Shown: positions 8,273 to 20,217 of the stretch, piece by piece
Numbering within the stretch: the stretch's first letter is position 1
How the letters are laid out: each line of letters starts with the position of its first letter
Assembly: GCA_963785725.1 (NCBI GenBank)
Contig: CAWAWS010000014.1
Span: forward strand, 96,001-160,000
Source of the DNA: an uncultured delta proteobacterium
GTDB lineage: Bacteria; Myxococcota_A; Polyangia; Palsa-1104
Reading direction: 5' to 3'
Length of the DNA stretch: 64,000 nt
Notes under the pieces: model-generated
Seen by the model: the letters and a program-made list of their open reading frames with translations, nothing else
Told to the model about the DNA's origin: nothing
Databases searched by the model: none
Program-made: the position numbers and the translations under genes

Positions 8273-9517
8273 TTACGCGATGACGGGCAAGCGCAGCGCC
8301 GGCTTCGGCGTCGGATGGGCCGCGCGATAGTCGATGACGCGCGGGCACTCCGGATCGGGCGCCGCCGCGTCGCCGCTGACGTGCAGGCTGACGACGCGAC
8401 AGCCGCCGCGGCACAGCGACAAATAATCGCACGAGCGGCACGGCTCGACCGCCGCTTCGCGCCAACGCCGGAACGGCCCGAACGCGTCGTCGCTCGCCCA
8501 GTAGTCGCCGATGGCGTCGACGCGCGCCGCGACGGGCGGCGCGAAGCTGCACGCGGTCAGCATGCCCGACGCTTTGGCGCCGACGAGCAGATCGCCGCCG
8601 GCGCAGCCGTAAATGGCGAGCCACTGCATCAGCTTGGGCGCGATCTTGTGATGCGTGACCATCGGCGTGTACGAGCAATCGAGCCGCACGCGCAGCCGAT
8701 GGCGCCGCGCCAGGCCGAGTATCAGCGGCACGAGCGCGCGATGTTGCTCGTCGCTGCAGCGCAGTTCGTCGTAGGTCTTGACGCCGCGCCCCGACGGCTT
8801 GAAGCGCAAGAGCTCGATCTCGCGCAGCCGCCGCTGCTTGGCGTAGGCGAACACCTCGGCGAGGCCGGCGAAGCTGCGGCGCGTGATGACGCAGTTGATG
8901 CCGACGTGCTTGGTGACCTTGCGCAGCGCGACGACGGCGCGATCGGCGCGGTCGAAGCCGTCGAAGCCGCGCACCGCCGCGTAATCGGCGCCGACGCCGT
9001 CGATGGACACGTTGATCTGCCCGAATTCGCCGGCGAAGCTGCACAGCCGCGCCAACTCCTCGTCGCCGTAGAGGCCGGACGTCGTCAAGTTGGGGACGAG
9101 CCCGCGTTGTCGCGCGTAGCCGACGATCTCGCCGAGCCACGGCAACAGCGCCGATTCGCCGCCGCCGAGCGCGAGATGGAAGACGCCGCGCGCGGCCAAG
9201 GCGTCGATGGCGCGCATCCAGTCGTCGCGGCCCCATTCGCCGGCGGCGCCCGTCGGCGTCGCGCCGGTGTAGCAGCCTTGGCAGCCGGCGTCGCAGCGGT
9301 TCGTCAGCTGCAAATGCGCCTCGAGCGGACCGGACAGCGGCGGCTCGTTCCAGCCGGCGTCGTCGGCAGCATCGGGCGCGTCCCAGAGCGGGCTTTGCGT
9401 GTGGCCGAGCCGGCGGGCGCGCGCACGGTCGACGAACACCAGCGCCCGCGGCCGCGTCAAATGCACGATGCCGCCGAAACGCTCGTATCGAAAGCTGCGC
9501 GGACGCCACGTCGCCAT
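8273..9517 (-). CDS. Radical SAM protein with C-terminal SPASM domain
   Basis: CDAGCQGC (CxxxCxxC), GGGE, SIDG; SPASM cysteines CAGG...TACSF...CRSCDYLSLCRGGC...PECP. Confidence 0.92.
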   Translation of the reverse strand: MATWRPRSFRYERFGGIVHLTRPRALVFVDRARARRLGHTQSPLWDAPDAADDAGWNEPPLSGPLEAHLQLTNRCDAGCQGCYTGATPTGAAGEWGRDDWMRAIDALAARGVFHLALGGGESALLPWLGEIVGYARQRGLVPNLTTSGLYGDEELARLCSFAGEFGQINVSIDGVGADYAAVRGFDGFDRADRAVVALRKVTKHVGINCVITRRSFAGLAEVFAYAKQRRLREIELLRFKPSGRGVKTYDELRCSDEQHRALVPLILGLARRHRLRVRLDCSYTPMVTHHKIAPKLMQWLAIYGCAGGDLLVGAKASGMLTACSFAPPVAARVDAIGDYWASDDAFGPFRRWREAAVEPCRSCDYLSLCRGGCRVVSLHVSGDAAAPDPECPRVIDYRAAHPTPKPALRLPVIA

Positions 9518-9544
9518 GTGCCGGAAGATAGTAGCATTCGGGAG

Positions 9545-10105
9545 GTGACGAGCGACGACGCCAAGCGGCTGATCGTGCAGCGACGCATCGTGTTCGCGCT
9601 GGTGGCGCTGGCGTTGGCGCTGCTGCTGCTGGTTTTATGGCGCCGTTCGTCACCGCCGCCGCGGGTCGCGATCGCCGGCGAGCGCACGGCCGGCCTCCGC
9701 GTGGCCTGCCGCGGCGACGGCAAGCGCTGCTCGCTCGCCGCCGCGCTGCAGCTGTTCGTCAGCAACGGCGGCCGCTTTCGCCATGTCTTCGCCGTTGGCC
9801 TCGACGATCGGGCGACGATCCATTGGTACTTGCCGCATCCGCCCGATGTCGTCAGCGCGGTGGCGCCGCTCGGCGACGATCGGCCGCTGGGCGCGCCCAT
9901 CCCGTTCGCACCCGAGCATGTGACCGGCAAATTGCGCGTCTATGCGCTCTTTTCGGACGCGCCCGTCTCGGCGCAGGAGGTGACGGCGGCGACGGCGGAG
10001 CTGAAGCTGCAGCAGCGCCCGTGGTCCTTGGCGCAGCTGGAGACGCTGCCGATCGCGCGCACCGACGTGCTGCAAGCGAGCGCGCTCGTCGATATCGTGC
10101 CGTAG
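9545..10105 (+). CDS. Membrane-anchored hypothetical protein (possible DUF4384-like beta domain)
   Basis: GTG 9545 in the 8249 ORF frame; N-terminal TM (IVFALVALALALLLLVLW); HWYLP...LRVYALFSDAPV. Confidence 0.6.
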   Translation: MTSDDAKRLIVQRRIVFALVALALALLLLVLWRRSSPPPRVAIAGERTAGLRVACRGDGKRCSLAAALQLFVSNGGRFRHVFAVGLDDRATIHWYLPHPPDVVSAVAPLGDDRPLGAPIPFAPEHVTGKLRVYALFSDAPVSAQEVTAATAELKLQQRPWSLAQLETLPIARTDVLQASALVDIVP

Positions 10106-11545
10106 TCAGCGGAGCGCGACGGTCGTGCGGTGCCAGTCCGGCGTCGCCCAGCGGCGAAAGCTGACGAAGTTGTCGAGGTGCGCCGCCTGCTTCTCGACGA
10201 CGAGATCGTCGGCGCGCAAGATCTGGAAGCTGCGCGAAATCCACGGCGCCAGCGTGTTCGGCTGACCGAGCGGACCGGTCATGCGCGCCTCGCGGGCGAC
10301 GAGCAGCCGCGTGCCGTCGGGCGACCAGCCGGCGGCTTCGACGTAGCCGAGCTCGGGATCGACCGCCGCCGGCGCCAGCGGACGCGCCGACCAGCCGCTG
10401 CCGCCGCGGCGAATGAGCACGAGCTCGGTCCAGCCCGGCAGCGGCGACTGCGCGATCGTCAGCCCATCGCCGCGCGGCGACAGCTTCAGCGACGCCGGCC
10501 ACACGACGGCGTAGGTGCAATGCGCGAACAGGACGCGTCCCGCCTGCGCCACTTGCACGCAGGTTTCGCCCGGTTTGCCGGCGACGAAATTGACCGCCAG
10601 CGCCTTCATCGCCGTCGCCGCCGGGCGCGCCTCGGCCGCCGCGCGCACCGAGCCGACGCGCACCGCCGCTTCGTCGAACGCGAGCGCGTCGTCATCGGCC
10701 AGCTCGACCTTGTCGACGAGCGCGAGCTCGTGCGCGGCCGCCGCCGCTGCGGTCGCCGCGCCTTTGTCGTCGGACTTGCGGGCGCGCGCATAGGCCAGCT
10801 CCGCCTGCACCGACGCGCGTCGAATGCGCAGCTTGTCGACGAGCCACGCCGCCAGCGCCGGCGCCGCCGGATCGGCCTTGTCGAGCACGTCCGCCTGCCA
10901 CGCGACGAGCGACTCGCGCGTGTTCGCCTGCAGCGCCGGATCGACGCACGCCGGATCGGTCAGGCCGAGCGCCGCGCGCGCTCTGGCCGCCGGCGGCGAC
11001 GGCAGCGCCAGCACCCGCCGAAAGGCCTCGCCGTCGTAGCAGACGCGCGTGCGCCCGCCCTCAGCGAACGACGCGAATTTGACGCCGTAGCTGCCCGCGA
11101 CGTCGAGCTGCGCCGCCAGCGTCGCGTCGTTGGGCCGTGCCCAGCGCGACGACGCGCGCCGGCCCAGCCGCTCGGCCATGACGCCGAGCGCGTCGAAGAG
11201 CTCGCCGCCGACCGCGTTCGCCGGCGCCGCGCGTAAGAACAGCGCCGCATAGCCGATGCCGAGCGCCTCTTGTCCCGGCGTATCGCGCACGAAATCGATG
11301 ACCGCCGCCAGATCGCGCGCGCTCGACTCGGCCACGGCATAGCTGCGCACCTGCGCCGGCCGCACGTAACCGGGCCGCTCGTGACGATGATCGTAGACCT
11401 GCAGCCAACCTTGACGCTCGCCGCGCACTTCCAGCCAATCGCCGGCAAAGAGCTGCGTCTGCCGCGCCGCCGTCTCGCGCGCATCGCTGCGCAGCGGCGT
11501 CGCGTCCTGCGTCACCAAAGCCACGACGAGCGCCAAGGTCAGCAT
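10106..11545 (-). CDS. Secreted hypothetical protein with N-terminal SH3-like domain
   Basis: Short signal; LFAGDWLEVRGERQGWLQVY...GYV SH3b-like pattern; C-terminal WSPDG propeller-like motif. Confidence 0.65.
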   Translation of the reverse strand: MLTLALVVALVTQDATPLRSDARETAARQTQLFAGDWLEVRGERQGWLQVYDHRHERPGYVRPAQVRSYAVAESSARDLAAVIDFVRDTPGQEALGIGYAALFLRAAPANAVGGELFDALGVMAERLGRRASSRWARPNDATLAAQLDVAGSYGVKFASFAEGGRTRVCYDGEAFRRVLALPSPPAARARAALGLTDPACVDPALQANTRESLVAWQADVLDKADPAAPALAAWLVDKLRIRRASVQAELAYARARKSDDKGAATAAAAAAHELALVDKVELADDDALAFDEAAVRVGSVRAAAEARPAATAMKALAVNFVAGKPGETCVQVAQAGRVLFAHCTYAVVWPASLKLSPRGDGLTIAQSPLPGWTELVLIRRGGSGWSARPLAPAAVDPELGYVEAAGWSPDGTRLLVAREARMTGPLGQPNTLAPWISRSFQILRADDLVVEKQAAHLDNFVSFRRWATPDWHRTTVALR

Positions 11546-11547
11546 CG

Positions 11548-12822
11548 TTATTCTCCGTCGCTGCCGCTGTTGTTGACGGCCGGCTTCGCCGGCTGCGCTT
11601 GCTCGCCGCGCGCCTGATCCATGCGCTGCCCGATCAACCCGCCCGCGAAAAAGCCGCCTGCTTGCGGCGGCGCGATGATGACCTGGATCTTGTCCGACAG
11701 TTTATCGGCGATCGTCTTCTGAATCAGCAGCGGGTTCTTCTGAATCAGCACCGCCTCGCGCTCCATCTGCGCCGCCGACGCCTTGCCGGTGACGTCGATG
11801 CGCTGCGCGTCGGCGAGCGCCAGCTTCATGCGCGCGTCGGCCTCGCCGCCGGCCTCGATTCGCCGCGCCTCGGCTTCGCCTTCGGCCTGCTTCAAGCGCG
11901 TCACCTTCGACGCTTCGGCCTCGAGCCGGCGCTGCTCGATCTCCTTCTCTTTGAACGGCAGCACGTGCTTCATCGCCTCTTCGCGCGACTTGGCCGCGAT
12001 GATCTCCTCTTGACCCGCCGCCTCCGCCGCCTTCTCGCGCTTGACCTTGTCGGCGTCGGCCATGAGCGACGCCTCCTCGACCTGCTTCGTCTTGAGCTCC
12101 AGCGTGAAACGCATCTTCTCCGACGACAGCTCTTCGGCCAGCAGCGACTCGAGCCCGCGCTTGTAATCCTCGGGCAGATCGACGTTGCCGATGAAGACGT
12201 TGCGCACGACGATGCCGTCCGGCAAAAGGTTCGGCTTCAGCTGCTCCTCGATCTGCTGCTGAATCTCCGCCCGCTGCGTCGAGAAGATCTCGCGAACCGT
12301 GTGCTTGGCGAACGTCCGATGCAAGACGCCGTCGACGACCGGCTCGACCAGCTCGCGCCCGACGTCGGCCGGCAGCTCCTCGGCGACGGTGACGACATGC
12401 GCCGGATCGAGCGCGTAACGAACGGCCACGTCGACGCCGATGCTCAAGCCTTCGACCGTCTGAAACGGCGCGTCGCCGCCCGCGCGCGCCGAGCGCATCG
12501 GCCGGTAGATCTGGTCACGCAGCGGAAAGCGACGCAGCTCGTGCATGAATGGCAACACCAGCGCCCAGCCTTCGTGCACCTGCGACACCTGGCCGGTCAG
12601 GCGATTGACGCGCACGCCGACTTCGCCCGGGTTCACCGTGCGCACCGGCTTGGCCGCGACGAAGCCGATGCCCAGCGTCACCAGCGTCAACACCGCCAGG
12701 ATGCGTCGCCCGCGCTCCGACGACACCATCTCCATCACCCCGAGCAGCGCGGCCCAACAGGTCGCACGGACGAGGTATCCCGTCTTCTTCAGCCGCTCGC
12801 CGATTCGCTTGAGCACTTGCAT
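11548..12822 (-). CDS. SPFH / band 7 / prohibitin family membrane protein
   Basis: TM then VRTVNPGEVGVRVN, R...EIFSTQRAEI, GIVVRNVFIGNVDLP, AEA-rich coiled coil. Confidence 0.88.
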   Translation of the reverse strand: MQVLKRIGERLKKTGYLVRATCWAALLGVMEMVSSERGRRILAVLTLVTLGIGFVAAKPVRTVNPGEVGVRVNRLTGQVSQVHEGWALVLPFMHELRRFPLRDQIYRPMRSARAGGDAPFQTVEGLSIGVDVAVRYALDPAHVVTVAEELPADVGRELVEPVVDGVLHRTFAKHTVREIFSTQRAEIQQQIEEQLKPNLLPDGIVVRNVFIGNVDLPEDYKRGLESLLAEELSSEKMRFTLELKTKQVEEASLMADADKVKREKAAEAAGQEEIIAAKSREEAMKHVLPFKEKEIEQRRLEAEASKVTRLKQAEGEAEARRIEAGGEADARMKLALADAQRIDVTGKASAAQMEREAVLIQKNPLLIQKTIADKLSDKIQVIIAPPQAGGFFAGGLIGQRMDQARGEQAQPAKPAVNNSGSDGE

Positions 12823-12929
12823 GGTCGTTGCCTCCGACGCCCGCGTAGTGCAGTCGGTGAGCCGTAGCTAAGTGCTCGTAAGGCGTGACTTTGCGGCTGG
12901 GCTGACACAGGCGCGTGTCGCGCCGGACA

Positions 12930-14144
12930 CTAGGCGGCGCGCAGGCCGTCTTCGCGGGCGGCGCCGTCGTCCGACATGCCGTGCAAGCGGCGGCGGCGCG
13001 CGGGGCCGATCGCGATGTGCAGCGCCGTCGCCACGACGCAGACGGCGAAACAGCCGCTCCACAACACGCCCGAGCCGAAGCGGCCGAGCACGAGCGAGCC
13101 CAACGCCGGCGCCAGACACGCCGACGCGCCCCAGGCCATCTGATACGTGCCTTGATAGCTGCCGCGCAGCTGCGCCGGCGACAGATCGGCGGTCACCGTC
13201 GGCGCCACCGGCGAATAGATCAGCTCGGCCACGGTCCAGATGACGACCGTGCCGGCGTACCAAGCGGCGGTGTGGCCGGCGCCGGTGAGCCCAAAGCCGA
13301 CGCCTTGCAGCAGCGCGCCCGCCGCCAACACGTAGGCGCGCCGATAACGATGCACGACGCGAATCGCCAGCGGCTGAAAGAGGACGATCATGACGCCGTT
13401 GATCGCCATCAAGAGCCCGTATTGCGACTCGGGGACGCCGTGGCCGGTCACGTCCATCGGCAAGGTCGAGTTGCCTTGCGAGCCCACGAGCATGACCAAG
13501 AACTGCGCGAACACGTAGATCATGAAGACGCCGTCACGCAGCGGCGCGCGCGGATCCGGTCGTGGGCGCTTGGCCGTCGAGTGGCGCTCGGGATGCGACT
13601 CGGGCACGAAGCGATAGACGATGAGGCCGCAGGCCAGCGTCGTCGCCGCGTCGCCGATGAAGAGCCACGTGAAGCTCAGGCGCGCCAGGAAGCCGGCCAG
13701 CATGGCGGCGCCGGCGAAGCCCAAGTTCACGGCCCAGTAGAGGTAGCCGAAGGCGCGCGTGCGATCGGCGGGCGCGACGACGTCGGAGACGGCGGCGGCC
13801 TGCGCCGGACGGTACAGATCGTTGCAGAAGCCGAGCAGCAGCGTCGAGGCCGCGATGTGCCACGGCGTGCGCGCGAAGCCGAGCTGCAGCATCGCGGCCG
13901 CGCCGAGCGTGAAGCTGGCGAGCATCGTGCGCCGGCGCCCGACGTGATCGGCCAAGTAGCCGCCGACGGGACCGGACGCGAACGAGCCGAGGCCGTAGAG
14001 CATGACGACGAAGCCGGCCTCGGCGATGGTGAAGTGCCGCGCGCGATGCAGATAGAGCGCGAGAAACGTGTAGACGAAGCCGCCCAGGCGGTTGACCAGC
14101 GCCGCCGCCCACAAGAACCAGAAGCTGCGTGGTAGACCGCGCAT
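12930..14144 (-). CDS. Major facilitator superfamily transporter
   Basis: Start re-assigned to ATG 14144; about 12 hydrophobic segments; motif A GGYLADHVGRR. Confidence 0.9.
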   Translation of the reverse strand: MRGLPRSFWFLWAAALVNRLGGFVYTFLALYLHRARHFTIAEAGFVVMLYGLGSFASGPVGGYLADHVGRRRTMLASFTLGAAAMLQLGFARTPWHIAASTLLLGFCNDLYRPAQAAAVSDVVAPADRTRAFGYLYWAVNLGFAGAAMLAGFLARLSFTWLFIGDAATTLACGLIVYRFVPESHPERHSTAKRPRPDPRAPLRDGVFMIYVFAQFLVMLVGSQGNSTLPMDVTGHGVPESQYGLLMAINGVMIVLFQPLAIRVVHRYRRAYVLAAGALLQGVGFGLTGAGHTAAWYAGTVVIWTVAELIYSPVAPTVTADLSPAQLRGSYQGTYQMAWGASACLAPALGSLVLGRFGSGVLWSGCFAVCVVATALHIAIGPARRRRLHGMSDDGAAREDGLRAA

Positions 14145-14200
14145 GCTGAGCCGTAGAGGATGAAGGAGCCGCGCGCCGGCGCAAGCGCCAGTGCGCGAAT

Positions 14201-14416
14201 TTACGGTGGATCCAGCTTGGGCGCGCCGTCGCTGGGCAGCCGTCGGCGCGTGCGCAGAAACAGCGACACGATCGGCGTCAGCAGCGCGATCGTGGCCATG
14301 CCGAACAGGAGAAACGTCACGTCCACGCCCAGCGACGACGAGTTGGGGTTGTAGCCCCATTTGACGGCCAAGATGCGGCCACGACGTGCCCTCCAGCGAC
14401 GATATAAGCCGATCAT
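14201..14416 (-). CDS. Small membrane-anchored peptide with GYNPNSSS motif (candidate radical SAM substrate)
   Basis: 71 aa MIGLYRRWRARRGRILAVKWGYNPNSSSLGVDVTFLLFGMATIALLTPIVSLFLRTRRR...; ATG overlaps upstream stop (ATGA). Confidence 0.7.
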   Translation of the reverse strand: MIGLYRRWRARRGRILAVKWGYNPNSSSLGVDVTFLLFGMATIALLTPIVSLFLRTRRRLPSDGAPKLDPP

Positions 14417-14862
14417 GGGTCGGCGCTGCAGGTGGCCGCCTGCGACAGGCACTTGTGACACTCGGGCGCTTTGCCGGTGCACGACATGCCTTGGCCGACG
14501 TAGGTGTTGTTGATGCACATCTGACAGGCGGCCGAGGTCGTGCCCATGTCGTCGGTGACGGCGCACAATCCGGCGCCGCCCATGTCGTTCGCCGTCGGGC
14601 AATATTGGCTGAAGCAATTCTGCAGCTCGATCTCCTCGAACGTCGCCGTGGGCGTTGCCATCTGCCGGCAGTTGAAGATGCAGACCGGCGTCGTGCACTT
14701 CTTCTCGCAGTTGTTCAGCGCTTGGCAGTTGTAGGCACCCGCCAAATCGAGCCCGGACAAGTCGAAGATGGGGATCGCCAGATCGGCCGGCATAGTGGCG
14801 TTGAAATCTCCGCTGAGGCAGCCTGCAACGACGAGCACAGCTGCGAGTGAGAACGCTCGCAT
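14413..14862 (-). CDS. Cys-rich lipoprotein
   Basis: ATG 14862, lipobox VAGC, many Cys in CxxxC / CxxC spacing. Confidence 0.75.
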   Translation of the reverse strand: MRAFSLAAVLVVAGCLSGDFNATMPADLAIPIFDLSGLDLAGAYNCQALNNCEKKCTTPVCIFNCRQMATPTATFEEIELQNCFSQYCPTANDMGGAGLCAVTDDMGTTSAACQMCINNTYVGQGMSCTGKAPECHKCLSQAATCSADP

Positions 14863-14879: not shown

Positions 14880-15377
14880 TCAAACCGAGTCGGAGAAGCA
14901 GGAGTTGAGCGGGTCGACGCAGAGGCCGCACTTGGGATCGGTGACGGTCGGCGGATCTTTGTTGGTCGCCGGATCGACGTCGACGCAGCTGCCGTGCTTG
15001 CCGCCGGTCGGGCTTTGGCCGAACTGCACGCACCACACGCACTCGGACTCGACGTCGCAGGCGCCGCCCGTCGACGTCGCGCCGGCGTCGGGCGGGCCGC
15101 ACTGGTCGTTGATGCAGTCGAAGAGCGCTTGGGCGAGCGTGGCGGCGCGGCTGTTGGCGCGGGCGGCGCACGCGGCTTGCGCGGTCGTGTCGGTGCCGGC
15201 GGCGTTGATGCAGTCGACGAGGCCGCCGCAGGCCAGCGGGCTCGTCATCGTCATGTCGGGCGGGCCGAGATCGGCGTTGCGACGCGTCGACGGGCCGCCG
15301 CAGCCGCCGCCGAGGACGAGCCAGCCGCCAGCGAGCAGGAGCCTTCCGAGCGTTCCGACCCTTGCCGTCGTCGTCAT
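14880..15377 (-). CDS. Cys-rich lipoprotein (similar Cys pattern to neighbour)
   Basis: ATG 15377, lipobox-like GGGC, C..L..C...C...L..C....C pattern shared with 14413..14862. Confidence 0.7.
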   Translation of the reverse strand: MTTTARVGTLGRLLLAGGWLVLGGGCGGPSTRRNADLGPPDMTMTSPLACGGLVDCINAAGTDTTAQAACAARANSRAATLAQALFDCINDQCGPPDAGATSTGGACDVESECVWCVQFGQSPTGGKHGSCVDVDPATNKDPPTVTDPKCGLCVDPLNSCFSDSV

Positions 15378-15490: not shown

Positions 15491-16777
15491 GTGGCCTCGG
15501 TGGTCTATCAAATCTTCGTCGCCGCGTTCGGTGGGCTCGATGGCGTCGCCGCACATTTGCCGCACGTGCGCGCGCTCGGTGCCGACGCGGTCTATCTGAC
15601 GCCGCTATTTTCGGCGCCGTCGGCGCACAAATACGACACGACCGACTTCGATGTCGTCGATGCCGGCTTCGGCGGCGAAGCGGCGTTCCAGCGCGTCGTC
15701 GCCGGCTGTCGCGCGCACGGCCTCGGCCTCATCCTCGACGGTGTCTTCAACCACGTCGGCGCCGGCCACCGTTGGACGCACGAGCATCCGAGCTGGTTCA
15801 GCGGCAGCGATTGGCGCGGCTTCCCGTCGCTGCGCGAGCTCGACACGACGCAAGCGGAAGTCCGCCGCGTCTTGTGCGACGTCGTCGCCGGCTGGACGCG
15901 CCGCGGCGCCAGCGGCTGGCGGCTCGACTGCATGAACGATCTCGGCCCGCGCTTCGCCGAGGAATTGGCGACCGCCGCGCGCGACGCCGGCGCCCGCGAC
16001 GGCGTCGTCGGCGAGATCATGGCCTATCCCGCCGGCTGGGTGAGATCGGGAAGCGCGCTCACCGGCGTGATGAACTATTGGCTACGCGCCGTCGCCCTTC
16101 AGCTCGCGCACGCGACCTCGCCGGCGACGCTGCTGCAATACGCCCTCGATCGCTTGGCCGCCGAGATGCCGGCCGACGTGTTGGCGCGCTCGTGGACGCT
16201 CATCGGCTCGCACGACACGACGCGCGTCGCCACCGCGCTCGGCTCGGAAGCGGCCGTCGACGTCGCGCAGGCGCTCATGTTCACCTATCCCGGCATGCCG
16301 ATGATCTACTACGGCGACGAGATCGGGCAGCTCGGCGGCTCCGATCCCGACTGTCGCCGGCCGCTGCCGCCGTCATCCGAGTGGAATCTGCAGCGGCTCG
16401 CGCGCACGCGGCTCTTGTGTCGCCTGCGGTGCGAGCATCCGGCGCTGACGAGCGGTCGTTACGTGCCCTTGCCGCAGCCGGGGACCGACGTCATCGCCTT
16501 CGCGCGCATCCCGCAAGAGCCGGCGCAGACGCTGATTTTCGTCGCCAATGCCAGCCCGCGCCCGACGCAGACGACGCTGTTCTTGCCGCTCGCGTTCGGC
16601 TTCGATGCGCTGCCGCTCGTCGACCAGCTGGGCACCGTCCCGGAATGCGCGCTGCACGAAGGCACGCTCCGGCTGACCCTGCCGCCGCACGGCGCCGTCC
16701 TCCTGGCCGCGCGCGACGATCTGCCGGGCGGCTACCGCTTCTTCAAGCCGTCGCTCGTGCTAGATTCCGCCGCGTGA
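15491..16777 (+). CDS. GH13 alpha-amylase family (cyclomaltodextrinase / neopullulanase-like)
   Basis: VYQIF, YLTPLF, HKYDT, DGVFNH, GWRLD, GEI, SHD, IYYGDEIG, DPDCRR. Confidence 0.9.
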   Translation: MASVVYQIFVAAFGGLDGVAAHLPHVRALGADAVYLTPLFSAPSAHKYDTTDFDVVDAGFGGEAAFQRVVAGCRAHGLGLILDGVFNHVGAGHRWTHEHPSWFSGSDWRGFPSLRELDTTQAEVRRVLCDVVAGWTRRGASGWRLDCMNDLGPRFAEELATAARDAGARDGVVGEIMAYPAGWVRSGSALTGVMNYWLRAVALQLAHATSPATLLQYALDRLAAEMPADVLARSWTLIGSHDTTRVATALGSEAAVDVAQALMFTYPGMPMIYYGDEIGQLGGSDPDCRRPLPPSSEWNLQRLARTRLLCRLRCEHPALTSGRYVPLPQPGTDVIAFARIPQEPAQTLIFVANASPRPTQTTLFLPLAFGFDALPLVDQLGTVPECALHEGTLRLTLPPHGAVLLAARDDLPGGYRFFKPSLVLDSAA

Positions 16778-19080
16778 ATCGCATCGTCCACTGGCTCGCC
16801 GGCACGGCCGAGAAGCGGATCGCGCTGGCGCTCCTCTGCCTGTGCGCGATGATCTACATCCCGCTCGCAGGCACCTACGGCATGTGGGATCCGTGGGAGA
16901 CCCACTACGGCGAGATCGCGCGTCAAATGGCGCATCGCAACGACTGGGTCAGCTTGTGGTGGCCGGGCTCGCCGCTCGATCGCTCCGAGGTGTTCCACAA
17001 GCCGGTGCTGCACTTCTGGCTCATGGCGCTGTCGATGAAGCTGTTCGGCATCGAATGGGGCCACTCGCCGCCGACGGAGATGGTCGACGGCTGGCGCGTC
17101 GAGTGGGCGGCGCGCCTGCCGAACATCTTCCTCTCGCTGGCGGCGATTTGGAGCGTGTGGTCGCTGGTGTCACGCCTGGCCGGCCGGCGCGCCGGCGCGC
17201 TGGCCGCGCTCATTCTGGCGACGTCGACGCAGTGGGCGCTCATCACGCGCCAAGCCATGACCGACATGCCGTTCGTGGCGCCGATGACGATCGCGCTGGC
17301 GCTGGCCGGCCTCGCGCTCCTCGGCAGCGACGAGGAGTTCACGACGCCGCTGCCGCGCCGCGAATTTACACTCGGCGGCTTCGCGTTCAGCTATCCGATG
17401 GCGCCGGCGTTCACGGCGTTCATGGCGCTCTTCGTCATCAGCGTCATTCCGCAGCTGATCGTCATGTCGATCCAAGTCAGCTGGATCGCGATCCTGTTCA
17501 ACTATCGCATTCGCATGATCGGCCTCGTGCCGATGCTGCCCTATTTCATCGTGTTTCTCGTCGGTGTCTGGTGGTGCGCTCGCGCCGTCAACCGCCGCCA
17601 GCTCTACCTCTTCTCGGCGTACCTGCTCGGCGCCATCGCCTGTCTCGCCAAAGGTCCGGCCGGCATCGCGCTGCCCGGCCTCGTCCTACTGCTCTATCTG
17701 CTCGTCGCCGGGCGCTGGCGCGACATCATCTTCGCGCTCGAGGTGCCGCGCGGCACCGTGCTCTTCATCGCCTGCGCGTTTCCTTGGTACCACTCGATGC
17801 TGATCCTGCACGGCGCGCCGTTTTGGCGCGAGTTCATCGGCGACAACTACGTCAACCGCGCCGCCGGCCGCCACGGCGATCGCGGCACCTTCGAGTATTA
17901 CCTGCAGTACATCGGCTACGGCATGTTCCCGTGGTCGGGCCTTGTCACGGTCGCCGGCGCGCTCTCGTTCACGAAGCTGCGCGAGCGGTCGGTGCGCGCG
18001 CAGCTGGCGGCGTTCGCCATCGTCTGGTTCCTCGTCGAATTCTCGACGGTGTCGCTGGTCAACACCAAGTTCCACCACTACATCCTGCCGGCGCTGCCGG
18101 CGCTGGCGATCTTGACCGGCCTCTTCCTCGACGATCTGCTGCGCGCGCCGACGCGCGGTCAGCTGTGGGGGCTCGCCCTCATCGCGCTGCCGCTGACGTT
18201 CCTGGCCGGCCGCGACCTGGCCGCGTTCCCGCCGCGCATCGGCTGGATGTTCAACTACGACTACGTCAACATGCCCGGCACCGGCCGTCCGTGGCCGACG
18301 GTGGCGCTGTTCGGCGACCGCTACGAATACGGCACGCAGATCCTCGTCTTCAGCGCCATCGCCGCGCTCGCCGTCGCGGCCTTGTGGTGGTCGTCGTGGC
18401 GCACGCGCGAGCTGGCGACATCGACCGAGCTGCCCGATCGCGCCGAGACCGCCGCGCCGCAGCGCTTTGCCGGCCCGCTCTTGATCGCGTTCGGCCTGAC
18501 GCTCGGCATCGGCCTCCTCCTCGGCCCGTCGACGGAGCACGGCCTCGCGCCCACGATCGGCCGCTGGGCCTGGATTTGGCCGACGATTCTCATGCTCGGC
18601 TGGCTGGTCGCCTTCGCGCGGCTGTTCGTGCGCACGTCGCCGGGCGCGCGCTCCGTCGCGCTGTGGGTGGTCGCCGCCGTCGCCGTCGGCTGGAGCGGGT
18701 TCGCGCTCGACAAGATCCTCGTCGAGACCTCGCCGCATTGGGCGCAAAAGCACGTCATCGCCGCCTATTACGCCAATCGCAAGCCCGGAGAGCCGCTCAT
18801 CGCCTGGCAGCTCTATTGGCGCGGCGAGAACTTCTACTCGCGTAACGAGATCTACGACGAGTCCAAGCCGCTGCTCGAGAAGACGGTGTTTTTGGGCGAT
18901 CGCAACGGCGAGCGCATGCAGGACTATTTCAAGACACACAAAGGGCTGCGCGTCTTCTTCGTCGTCGAGCGGGCGCGCTTCGAGACGTTGCGGCAGCTCT
19001 TGCCCGATTACGCGCGTCCGACGCTGACCATCGTCGATCAGTCGAACAACAAGCTCTATCTCGCGTCCGCGCAGCTCTAA
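16774..19080 (+). CDS. ArnT-like GT-C membrane glycosyltransferase
   Basis: GTG overlapping GH13 stop; WDPWETHYGEIARQM, FHKPVLHFW, ARLP, AKGP, TKFHHYILP; many TMs. Confidence 0.88.
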   Translation: MNRIVHWLAGTAEKRIALALLCLCAMIYIPLAGTYGMWDPWETHYGEIARQMAHRNDWVSLWWPGSPLDRSEVFHKPVLHFWLMALSMKLFGIEWGHSPPTEMVDGWRVEWAARLPNIFLSLAAIWSVWSLVSRLAGRRAGALAALILATSTQWALITRQAMTDMPFVAPMTIALALAGLALLGSDEEFTTPLPRREFTLGGFAFSYPMAPAFTAFMALFVISVIPQLIVMSIQVSWIAILFNYRIRMIGLVPMLPYFIVFLVGVWWCARAVNRRQLYLFSAYLLGAIACLAKGPAGIALPGLVLLLYLLVAGRWRDIIFALEVPRGTVLFIACAFPWYHSMLILHGAPFWREFIGDNYVNRAAGRHGDRGTFEYYLQYIGYGMFPWSGLVTVAGALSFTKLRERSVRAQLAAFAIVWFLVEFSTVSLVNTKFHHYILPALPALAILTGLFLDDLLRAPTRGQLWGLALIALPLTFLAGRDLAAFPPRIGWMFNYDYVNMPGTGRPWPTVALFGDRYEYGTQILVFSAIAALAVAALWWSSWRTRELATSTELPDRAETAAPQRFAGPLLIAFGLTLGIGLLLGPSTEHGLAPTIGRWAWIWPTILMLGWLVAFARLFVRTSPGARSVALWVVAAVAVGWSGFALDKILVETSPHWAQKHVIAAYYANRKPGEPLIAWQLYWRGENFYSRNEIYDESKPLLEKTVFLGDRNGERMQDYFKTHKGLRVFFVVERARFETLRQLLPDYARPTLTIVDQSNNKLYLASAQL

Positions 19081-19086
19081 CGCGCG

Positions 19087-20217
19087 TCAGCGTTCCGGTC
19101 CCCACTTCAGCGTCTCGACGACGAGGTCGGTCAACCCGGTCGTCTGCACCGCGAGGAACATGAGGCAGACGACGGCGGCGGCCAGCGCCAGCGCGCGCCG
19201 CCAGCGCTCGCCGCGGCTCATCGGGCCGCGCTCGAGCCGCGCCGGCAGGCCCGCCGCCGACAGCCAGACGATGAGCCCGCCGCCGACGGCCAAGATCGCC
19301 GTCGCGGCGCCGATGAGCCGATTCTCCGTCAGCGCCGCCAAGACGAACAAGAGCGCCACCGGCGCGTAATAGAGCAGCTCCGTCGGCCACGTCAGCAGTC
19401 GGCGCAGCGGTCGAATCGCCCGCAGCTGGAGCGCGAAGAAGAGCAGCAGATAGATCGTCGCCACCGTGACGCCGGCGCTGCGCGCGATCCACAGCAGCGA
19501 ATCGGCGAGCCCTTCGGCGCCCGACGAGCGCGCCAGCGGATCCGCCGACGCCGACAGCTGGCGATAGAGCGCGCGCGCCGCGAACGGATGGCCGTGGCCG
19601 AGCAGCAGATCGGCGCGCGCCTTCTTGCACCGCGGCGCGAACTCGGTGGCGGCGAAGCGCGTCTCGCAGGCGACGAAGGCGGCGTTGGCGCGCGGCTCGT
19701 CGTGCGCGTCCAGGTAGGCCTGGCCGAGCCAGAAGAGCGCGCGGTCGGCGAGCGCGAAGTCGGCGTGCGCGGCGAGCAGTCGCTCCATGCGCGCCCGGGC
19801 GTCGGCGTTGGCGTGCGCGCCGGCGCTGCCGATGATCGCGTCGTATTCGCGCAGCGGCGCCTCGCCCGTCGCCAGCGATTGGCCGAGAAAGTCGGCGCGC
19901 GTGCGGGCGCGGCGCGACAAGCGGCTCGTCGGATATTTCGCGGCCACCTCTTCGTACAGCCGTCGCGCCCGCGCCGGATCGCTCAGCCGCTCCTCGGCGA
20001 CGACAGCCGCTTCGAAGAGCGCGTCGGCCGCGAACGAATCGGCCGGCAGCTCATGCCCGAGCCGCTCGAGCGCGGCCGCGGCGCCGGCGTAATCGCCGCG
20101 CGCTTCCGACGCCGTCGCCGCCGCGAACTGCTGCTGCCCGCTGTCGGCGAGCGCGATCGCGCCCGATCCGCCGATGACGGCAGCGGCGACGGCAGCAGCG
20201 ACGACGGCGGCGCGCAT
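19087..20217 (-). CDS. TPR-containing exported protein with C-terminal membrane domain
   Basis: Signal peptide, BamD/YbgF-like TPR repeats (ADALFEAA, DRALFWLGQAY), about 4 C-terminal TMs. Confidence 0.7.
   Translation of the reverse strand: MRAAVVAAAVAAAVIGGSGAIALADSGQQQFAAATASEARGDYAGAAAALERLGHELPADSFAADALFEAAVVAEERLSDPARARRLYEEVAAKYPTSRLSRRARTRADFLGQSLATGEAPLREYDAIIGSAGAHANADARARMERLLAAHADFALADRALFWLGQAYLDAHDEPRANAAFVACETRFAATEFAPRCKKARADLLLGHGHPFAARALYRQLSASADPLARSSGAEGLADSLLWIARSAGVTVATIYLLLFFALQLRAIRPLRRLLTWPTELLYYAPVALLFVLAALTENRLIGAATAILAVGGGLIVWLSAAGLPARLERGPMSRGERWRRALALAAAVVCLMFLAVQTTGLTDLVVETLKWGPER

Follow-up and report, generated by a model that had tools for sequence, protein, structure and literature searches.

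SPASM-domain enzymes of the radical S-adenosylmethionine (SAM) superfamily can modify protein substrates, as exemplified by CrpC (PMC13692751), and anaerobic sulfatase-maturating enzymes (anSMEs) turn Ser or Cys into formylglycine by oxidation (PMC10114670). In SuiB and anSME the auxiliary clusters have a full set of ligands, and a spare Cys serves epimerases as hydrogen donor (PMC8326336). Ser is rejected by NxxcB and Cys by TqqB (PMC9389541). Here we describe a candidate system of this kind in a 64,000-nucleotide stretch of contig CAWAWS010000014.1 from an uncultured delta proteobacterium (the window). It pairs a radical SAM/SPASM enzyme of 414 aa (8273..9517, minus strand) with a likely substrate, peptide P, which is encoded by a 71-residue open reading frame (ORF; 14201..14416, minus strand) and is composed of a leader strand, a tag and one hydrophobic helix. 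Across variants, the tag follows the consensus G-x-x-[PA]-N-[S/C]-S-[SA]-x-G. Enzyme and P very probably stand to each other as enzyme and substrate, and the Ser or Cys after the conserved Asn of the tag, Ser26 in P, is the probable site of modification. The enzyme-client pair is apparently undescribed and is best classed with leader-guided SPASM maturases; a literature search on NSSS-type motifs and the enzyme-P system gave no description among the matches listed.

The locus resembles anSME and AtsB (PMC10114670 and PMC8326336) in having a SPASM enzyme, with clusters that appear fully ligated by Cys, and a protein motif in which one position is Ser or Cys. However, the window enzyme is distant from these enzymes in sequence (E 2e-17 against anSMEcpe, and closer to PqqE, at E 2e-36, SkfB and SuiB), has a putative partial RiPP recognition element (RRE; RiPP, a peptide that is ribosomally synthesized and then modified post-translationally), and would act on a one-helix membrane peptide. 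The anSME family was not among the best 25 of 45 NCBIfam families for the enzyme, nor was a sulfatase among the recurring neighbours listed. The sulfatase client motif of anSME is [C/S]xPxR, from which the window tag, N-[S/C]-S-[SA], differs. The MftC/MftB/MftA and PqqE/PqqD/PqqA systems are alike in giving the best NCBIfam scores, in the MftB-like N-terminal strands and in a short dedicated peptide gene. Yet the enzyme stays under the cut-off of every named NCBIfam family shown, and far below those of MftC (TIGR03962, its best score, 112 bits against 265) and PqqE (TIGR02109, 90 bits against 381). RRE helices 2-3 are missing, P has a membrane helix and matches no precursor family, and no tailoring or protease genes recur; no Mft family is matched by P or by the other scanned neighbours. 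With the SuiB-type RRE-SPASM cyclases, NxxcB and TqqB, the enzyme shares a similar fold, a similar Cys spacing and a putative leader-guided logic. SuiB is its best fold match (E 5e-16, TM-score 0.69; 17% identity), and four of the motifs formed by its SPASM Cys align with those of SuiB. In contrast to these cyclases, the window tag has no conserved aromatic residue, no transporter or quorum-sensing genes recur, and enzyme-substrate fusions occur.

Avap1/Avap2 of the KpAvs2 defence operon likewise combine a radical SAM gene with a small protein binding to a larger partner, the role of the radical SAM enzyme being left unresolved in PMC11564622. Judging from one locus read, we regard this system as an analogue rather than as the same tag. 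DUF6375 (PF19902) had no match in the window genome or on P and was found in 1 of 301 genomes; in the single DUF6375 protein read, the tag at the start is a different one, and the accompanying enzyme has no SPASM cysteines. At L261:1489-2966 (G157), an Avap-like cassette couples a DUF6375 gene with an ATPase gene and a radical SAM gene, the latter devoid of SPASM Cys.

Enzyme, peptide and their co-inheritance

The SPASM radical SAM gene proposed in the first-pass annotation was borne out by a CxxxCxxC motif (C75/79/82), a radical SAM domain (PF04055, 44 bits) and a SPASM domain (TIGR04085, 35.4 bits against a cut-off of 27), and so was its N-terminal extension, RYERFGGIVHLTRPRALVFVD, which stands before the catalytic core. 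Three radical-SAM Cys and eight SPASM Cys (281, 305, 323, 360, 363, 369, 373 and 391) are invariant in 85/85 aligned enzyme sequences, with no further invariant Cys; judged from the alignment, all 11 would fit as cluster ligands. E66 and H68, both on the first barrel strand, are invariant as well. The extension had been likened to the strands of an MftB-type RRE, and the strands are indeed present: in the AlphaFold model (AF2, pLDDT 93.7), the N-terminus consists of three strands and one helix. The putative module spans residues 8-36 (9410..9496, minus strand), with R10, E12 and G15 invariant, and residues 9-33 align with MftB positions 14-38, weakly (E 0.049, below cut-off). MftB was the commonest match among enzyme homologs, yet in only 9 of 50, and none of four PDB matches is an RRE. 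Because the MftB match is weak and the model has three strands and one helix, the likeness is partial, and the N-terminus is a partial RRE at best. Outside the phylum, homologs of the enzyme were found, by name without gene context, in Spirochaetales, Bdellovibrionota, Sedimentisphaerales and Verrucomicrobia.

P has one predicted transmembrane helix, as had been annotated; its single hydrophobic 19-mer covers residues 36-54 (mean Kyte-Doolittle hydropathy 2.26) and is preceded by 7 Lys/Arg. The peptide is single-copy in the window genome, and no family in Pfam, NCBIfam or the precursor families scored above cut-off for it. At E<=1, 1057 of 1059 candidate proteins match P, with a core nearly unchanged in the best 120, and P is therefore a real conserved gene and not a chance ORF. 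A hydrophobic, basic strand stands before the tag; leader strand and tag together occupy R14-G30 of P (RILAVKWGYNPNSSSLG; 14327..14377, minus strand), and Ser26, at the Ser/Cys/Gly position, is encoded at 14339-14341 (minus strand). Tag statistics come from 70 distinct tags, for which the position after the Asn (+1) was free and the flanking Gly was fixed by the search pattern. All 70 have Ser (44) or Cys (26) at +1 and none has Ala (0/70), with the Asn itself kept in 69 of 70. The Cys form was first seen in DNA upstream of more distant enzymes, and according to a quick tree all Cys-type tags go with one enzyme subclade; their leaders are not strongly basic. The Tyr that had been read as part of the motif (GYNPNSSS) is not conserved, and Tyr-centred chemistry was rejected, as Tyr is present in 21 of 70 tags only. 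Pilin-like cleavage of P was also rejected, there being no pilin family match and an acidic residue that shifts position.

We followed the two genes through 80 genome loci with a P alignment (the best 80 of 112, with titles mostly Myxococcota/Deltaproteobacteria) and through 251 genomes drawn evenly from the phylum. An enzyme ortholog lies within 10 kb of P (<=10 kb) in 54 of the 80 loci, and <=400 bp downstream in 52. It is located elsewhere in 25 of the remaining 26 genomes (44-82% identity), the one miss being a 2.7 Mb assembly; 79 of 80 P-bearing genomes thus carry the enzyme somewhere. Within the phylum sample, the enzyme is present in 50 of 251 genomes and P in 49 of these 50, the exception having the enzyme at a contig end; in 37 of the 50, P is adjacent to or fused with the enzyme. 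An earlier P profile, A2, matched 28 genomes of the sample, 26 of them enzyme-positive. A wider version, A4, matched 51 (49 enzyme-positive, one with a broken enzyme and one weak), an overlap that is partly circular because A4 was partly made from 28 enzyme-adjacent peptides. Two genomes hold two copies each of enzyme and P. Tag and helix stand in frame with the enzyme at 15 of the 34 distant enzyme loci read for fusions; these fusions, read from DNA only, fall at three places in the enzyme tree (quick tree). Four genes and 4.7 kb separate enzyme and P in the window, as had been annotated. Two close relatives have the enzyme about 10 kb downstream of P, behind a similar inserted block, and the window gap is therefore a lineage-specific insertion. 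The link suspected in the first-pass annotation is favoured by these counts, with enzyme and P co-occurring, usually adjacent, and fused in 15 genomes. It is well supported that they form a conserved, co-inherited pair, as a precursor gene and its maturase do in a RiPP pathway.

The gene order common to distant loci is U - P - enzyme - D1 - D2, in which U, D1 and D2 are recurring membrane-protein neighbours; D2 occurs in 56 of the 251 genomes, and 46 of the 50 enzyme-positive genomes carry it. Two nearly complete genomes were the first in which U, D1 and D2 were seen without an enzyme ortholog, and D1 from those two was found in 15 of 201 genomes of their family. None of these 15 genomes (84-99% complete) has an enzyme ortholog (<=184 bits, against at least 311 bits for 104 orthologs, scores inflated by the many orthologs inside the profile), and none has a leader-bearing P. 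A short membrane ORF without leader strand fills the P slot between U and D1 in 14 of them, with one genome lacking it, and the P profile detects this ORF in 3 of 15 (E 0.001-0.009). It reads N-G-S-S in 9 genomes and T-G-G-G in exact register in 2, and is Gly-rich with unclear register in 3; Gly at the Ser/Cys position is unambiguous in 11. The N-termini are short and weakly charged, with 5-13 residues before Asn-Gly. In agreement with enzyme loss, D2 of the enzyme-less genomes is nested in a 100/100 clade that also includes enzyme-bearing genomes. These relatives tie the leader and the Ser/Cys to the enzyme, and they suggest that Gly can replace the enzyme product. At two further loci (L150 and L167, in G135 and G256), broken enzyme copies lie beside intact D1 or P, and either ongoing loss or assembly errors may account for them.

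The first-pass annotation also placed small proteins with N-terminal NSSS motifs near uncharacterised SPASM enzymes, and such proteins were found next to radical SAM genes in viral contigs. A scan with a motif of this type returned 57 loci, with arrays of small proteins beginning M-K-x-R-x-G-F-V-S-N-S-S-S. Ser follows the Asn in 126/126 distinct viral tags, which share the register of P, namely R/K(-6), G(-4) and N-S-S-S. A radical SAM gene lies <=5 kb away in 26 of 46 distinct viral loci, a raw count without a background rate for random viral loci. The phage enzymes are probably related to the window enzyme, to judge from sequence comparison. A phage enzyme profile has the window enzyme as its best match in the window genome (37 against 25 bits), and a quick tree, with long-branch warnings, separates window and phage enzymes from 18 other SPASM enzymes; the window enzyme matches phrog_7293 at E 0.003 only, and the profile-profile match covers the core only and does not discriminate. 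Unlike the window enzyme, the phage enzymes (phrog_7293 radical SAM) are shorter in the SPASM region and stand amid many tagged small proteins, whereas the window system is chromosomal, with one tagged membrane peptide that has Cys and Gly variants. The proteins of the viral arrays (L204-L260) are alike only in the N-terminal NSSS tag, several having Cys-x-x-Cys right after it.

Candidate chemistry at the tag

Our tentative preference is for an anSME-like oxidation of the Ser/Cys after Asn to formylglycine or Gly. Oxidation at C-beta fits best because the site is exchangeable between Ser and Cys, the enzyme has eight SPASM Cys, and Gly serves as a stand-in. In such a mechanism, the strand RILAVK would pair with the three-stranded partial RRE of the enzyme, a 5'-deoxyadenosyl radical would take a C-beta hydrogen of Ser26, and two fully Cys-ligated auxiliary clusters would remove an electron to give an aldehyde (a thioaldehyde for Cys), as in anSME/AtsB. 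Formylglycine is predicted to behave like, or decay to, Gly; on chemical grounds, loss of the formyl group could convert it to Gly, and a literature search returned no Ser-to-Gly radical SAM precedent among the matches listed. The modified P would then join D1, D2 and U, a protein with tetratricopeptide repeats (TPR), in a membrane complex to which it contributes a single helix.

Several points weigh against this scheme. Cys-type tags are confined to one enzyme subclade, and thus no single enzyme need accept both Ser and Cys. The enzyme is distant from anSME in sequence, and Ser, not an acid, is invariant after C323. In the fusions, the helix has the tag at one end and the enzyme at the other, an arrangement that suits a membrane-spanning substrate poorly, and charge counts do not settle the topology of P, for which a cytoplasmic tag had been proposed in the first-pass annotation. 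The Gly lineage may trace to just one event in evolution (1 to 4 changes); moreover, Cys to Gly takes one base change, and drift after enzyme loss could therefore have produced it. The counts themselves are tempered by related genomes that are not independent, by the circular part of the A4 overlap and by the inflated ortholog scores, and a D2 match is absent from 4 of the 50 enzyme-positive genomes, as is the enzyme from 10 of the 56 D2-positive ones.

The main rival, which we consider unlikely, is epimerisation of the Ser/Cys after Asn to its D form, with achiral Gly standing in after enzyme loss. Asn-Gly favours tight turns, and the Gly that enzyme-less genomes have at this position is the mimic expected for a D residue. 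However, known epimerases use a spare Cys (PMC8326336), whereas the 11 invariant Cys here would all fit as ligands, and Ala was found at +1 in none of the 70 tags although an epimerase substrate could allow it. A cross-link to a neighbour such as Asn, through an ether for Ser or a thioether for Cys, as made by TqqB or NxxcB, would agree with a beta-heteroatom that is always present at +1 and with an Asn kept in 69 of 70 tags, and SuiB, the best fold match, is a cross-linking enzyme. We nevertheless find a cross-link quite improbable, given that NxxcB refuses Ser and TqqB refuses Cys (PMC9389541), that Gly cannot mimic a cross-link, and that eight SPASM Cys leave the donor atom no open iron site.

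Two other explanations move the chemistry away from the side chain of Ser26. P may serve for docking, as a subunit by which the enzyme is tethered to U/D1/D2, the real target lying elsewhere (a lipid, a cofactor or D2). The fusions do resemble N-terminal membrane anchors, loss of the leader alongside the enzyme would fit docking alone, and among the invariant residues of D2 (His, Tyr, Phe, Lys and Glu) are polar ones placed in the membrane. Yet docking leaves the strict Ser/Cys exchange unexplained, as well as the phage arrays, in which many unrelated soluble-looking proteins bear the tag in the same register, and 14 genomes keep the complex although they lack the enzyme; this explanation seems hardly probable to us. 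Finally, C-alpha oxidation with backbone cleavage after Asn would remove the basic leader and let the helix insert with its N-terminus outside. The 7 Lys/Arg before the helix of P are in keeping with cleavage, as are the short, weakly charged N-termini of the enzyme-less versions and the ability of C-alpha radicals to break peptides (PMC8326336). It is, however, very unlikely, since the enzyme-less versions retain 5-13 residues before Asn-Gly instead of starting at the cut, and Cys-type leaders lack a strongly basic character.

Membrane module and neighbouring genes

U (19087..20217, minus strand) lies 4.7 kb upstream of P and has a signal peptide, a TPR region and a four-helix membrane C-terminus. 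It scores 41.5 bits on a profile made from 28 upstream genes of other genomes, and a U homolog stands directly upstream of P in many relatives. Matched by a U profile at 22 of the 80 near loci and at 30 of the 39 distant ones scanned, this TPR membrane protein is a more widespread upstream partner of P than the lipoprotein gene next to P in the window. That coupling, a Cys-rich lipoprotein gene (14413-14862) whose stop is overlapped by the P start (ATGA), had been pointed out in the first-pass annotation; it is real in the window and lineage-specific, a homolog being found at 3 of 80 loci and adjacent in 1. Together with 14880-15377 (minus strand), 14413-14862 encodes Cys-rich predicted lipoproteins without Pfam/NCBIfam match, which occur upstream of P in close relatives only. 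A second U-like TPR membrane gene was noted at G000:C5:112134-112964, with no P nearby, and four PqqD-family matches within 14 kb at G000:C3:479964-493188 may mark a separate peptide-modification locus.

D1 has three helices and D2 four. The D2 model is good (pLDDT 91), and assignment of a function by fold was rejected, as it retrieved generic four-helix bundles only (Foldseek best E 0.05; VIA best Z 14.6, a designed bundle). D2 belongs to no Pfam family, the best 120 of its 265 homologs are unnamed or hypothetical, and its Atlas matches are unnamed. The window genome has two D2 copies, located elsewhere than the window (L148:9297-10152 and L149:5059-5960), and a D1 profile did not detect their adjacent genes. 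Both copies are coupled to small membrane genes that belong to a second type; one copy stands beside a two-component pair and the other right after ftsZ. A metallophosphoesterase recurs alongside U, D1 and D2, and no protease or exporter is among the recurring neighbours. This metallophosphoesterase is a purple-acid-phosphatase-like lipoprotein encoded beside the module in 21 of 77 loci (e.g. L113:1101-2468); the phosphoesterase beside the window enzyme (PF04185, 6782-8227) differs from it.

Between enzyme and P, the window carries inserted passenger genes (9545..14144), which comprise a plus-strand membrane-anchored gene, an SH3-like gene, an SPFH gene and a major facilitator superfamily (MFS) transporter gene and are found in 2-5 of 80 P loci. 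On these counts, 2-5 of 80 loci, the lipoprotein, MFS (5 of 80), SPFH and SH3-like genes were rejected as members of the system. The membrane-anchored gene (9545 to about 10105, plus strand) starts some 28 bp from the enzyme start, on the opposite strand, and shows homology to the C-terminal portion of a longer gene that L011 has between P and enzyme. A kinase/pyrophosphorylase gene (PF03618; 5894..6724, minus strand), found at 33 of 80 P loci, is syntenic with the enzyme in one subclade; it is probably outside the system, being limited to that subclade and not recurrent at distant loci. Further upstream, 16774-19080 (plus strand) encodes an ArnT/PMT-like membrane glycosyltransferase (PF13231, barely over cut-off), converges on U and adjoins an alpha-amylase-family gene. 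Scans for promoters and terminators gave results at chance level.

Implications

This work defines a five-gene membrane module of myxobacteria-like bacteria without family names, and within it a one-enzyme, one-substrate version of the tag system seen in phage arrays, whose chemistry is undescribed. The natural Ser, Cys and Gly variants point to the residue concerned and predict the product. Should that product be formylglycine, the locus would add a second aldehyde-tag system, one whose sequence is new and leader-guided; should it be Gly or a D residue, it would represent new radical SAM chemistry on a membrane protein. More broadly, and this generalisation we regard as doubtful, a widespread undescribed class of radical SAM enzymes may read an N-terminal R-x-G-x-x-x-N-[S/C]-S-S tag and edit Ser/Cys into Gly or a Gly-like residue. 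The edit would license a membrane-complex subunit in Myxococcota, the enzyme-less lineage would have hard-coded the Gly, and phages would tag arrays of clients. If this editing is real, a membrane-complex subunit depends on an Fe-S enzyme, and proteins are edited at the level of a single residue, with the product written in the genomes of enzyme-less relatives.

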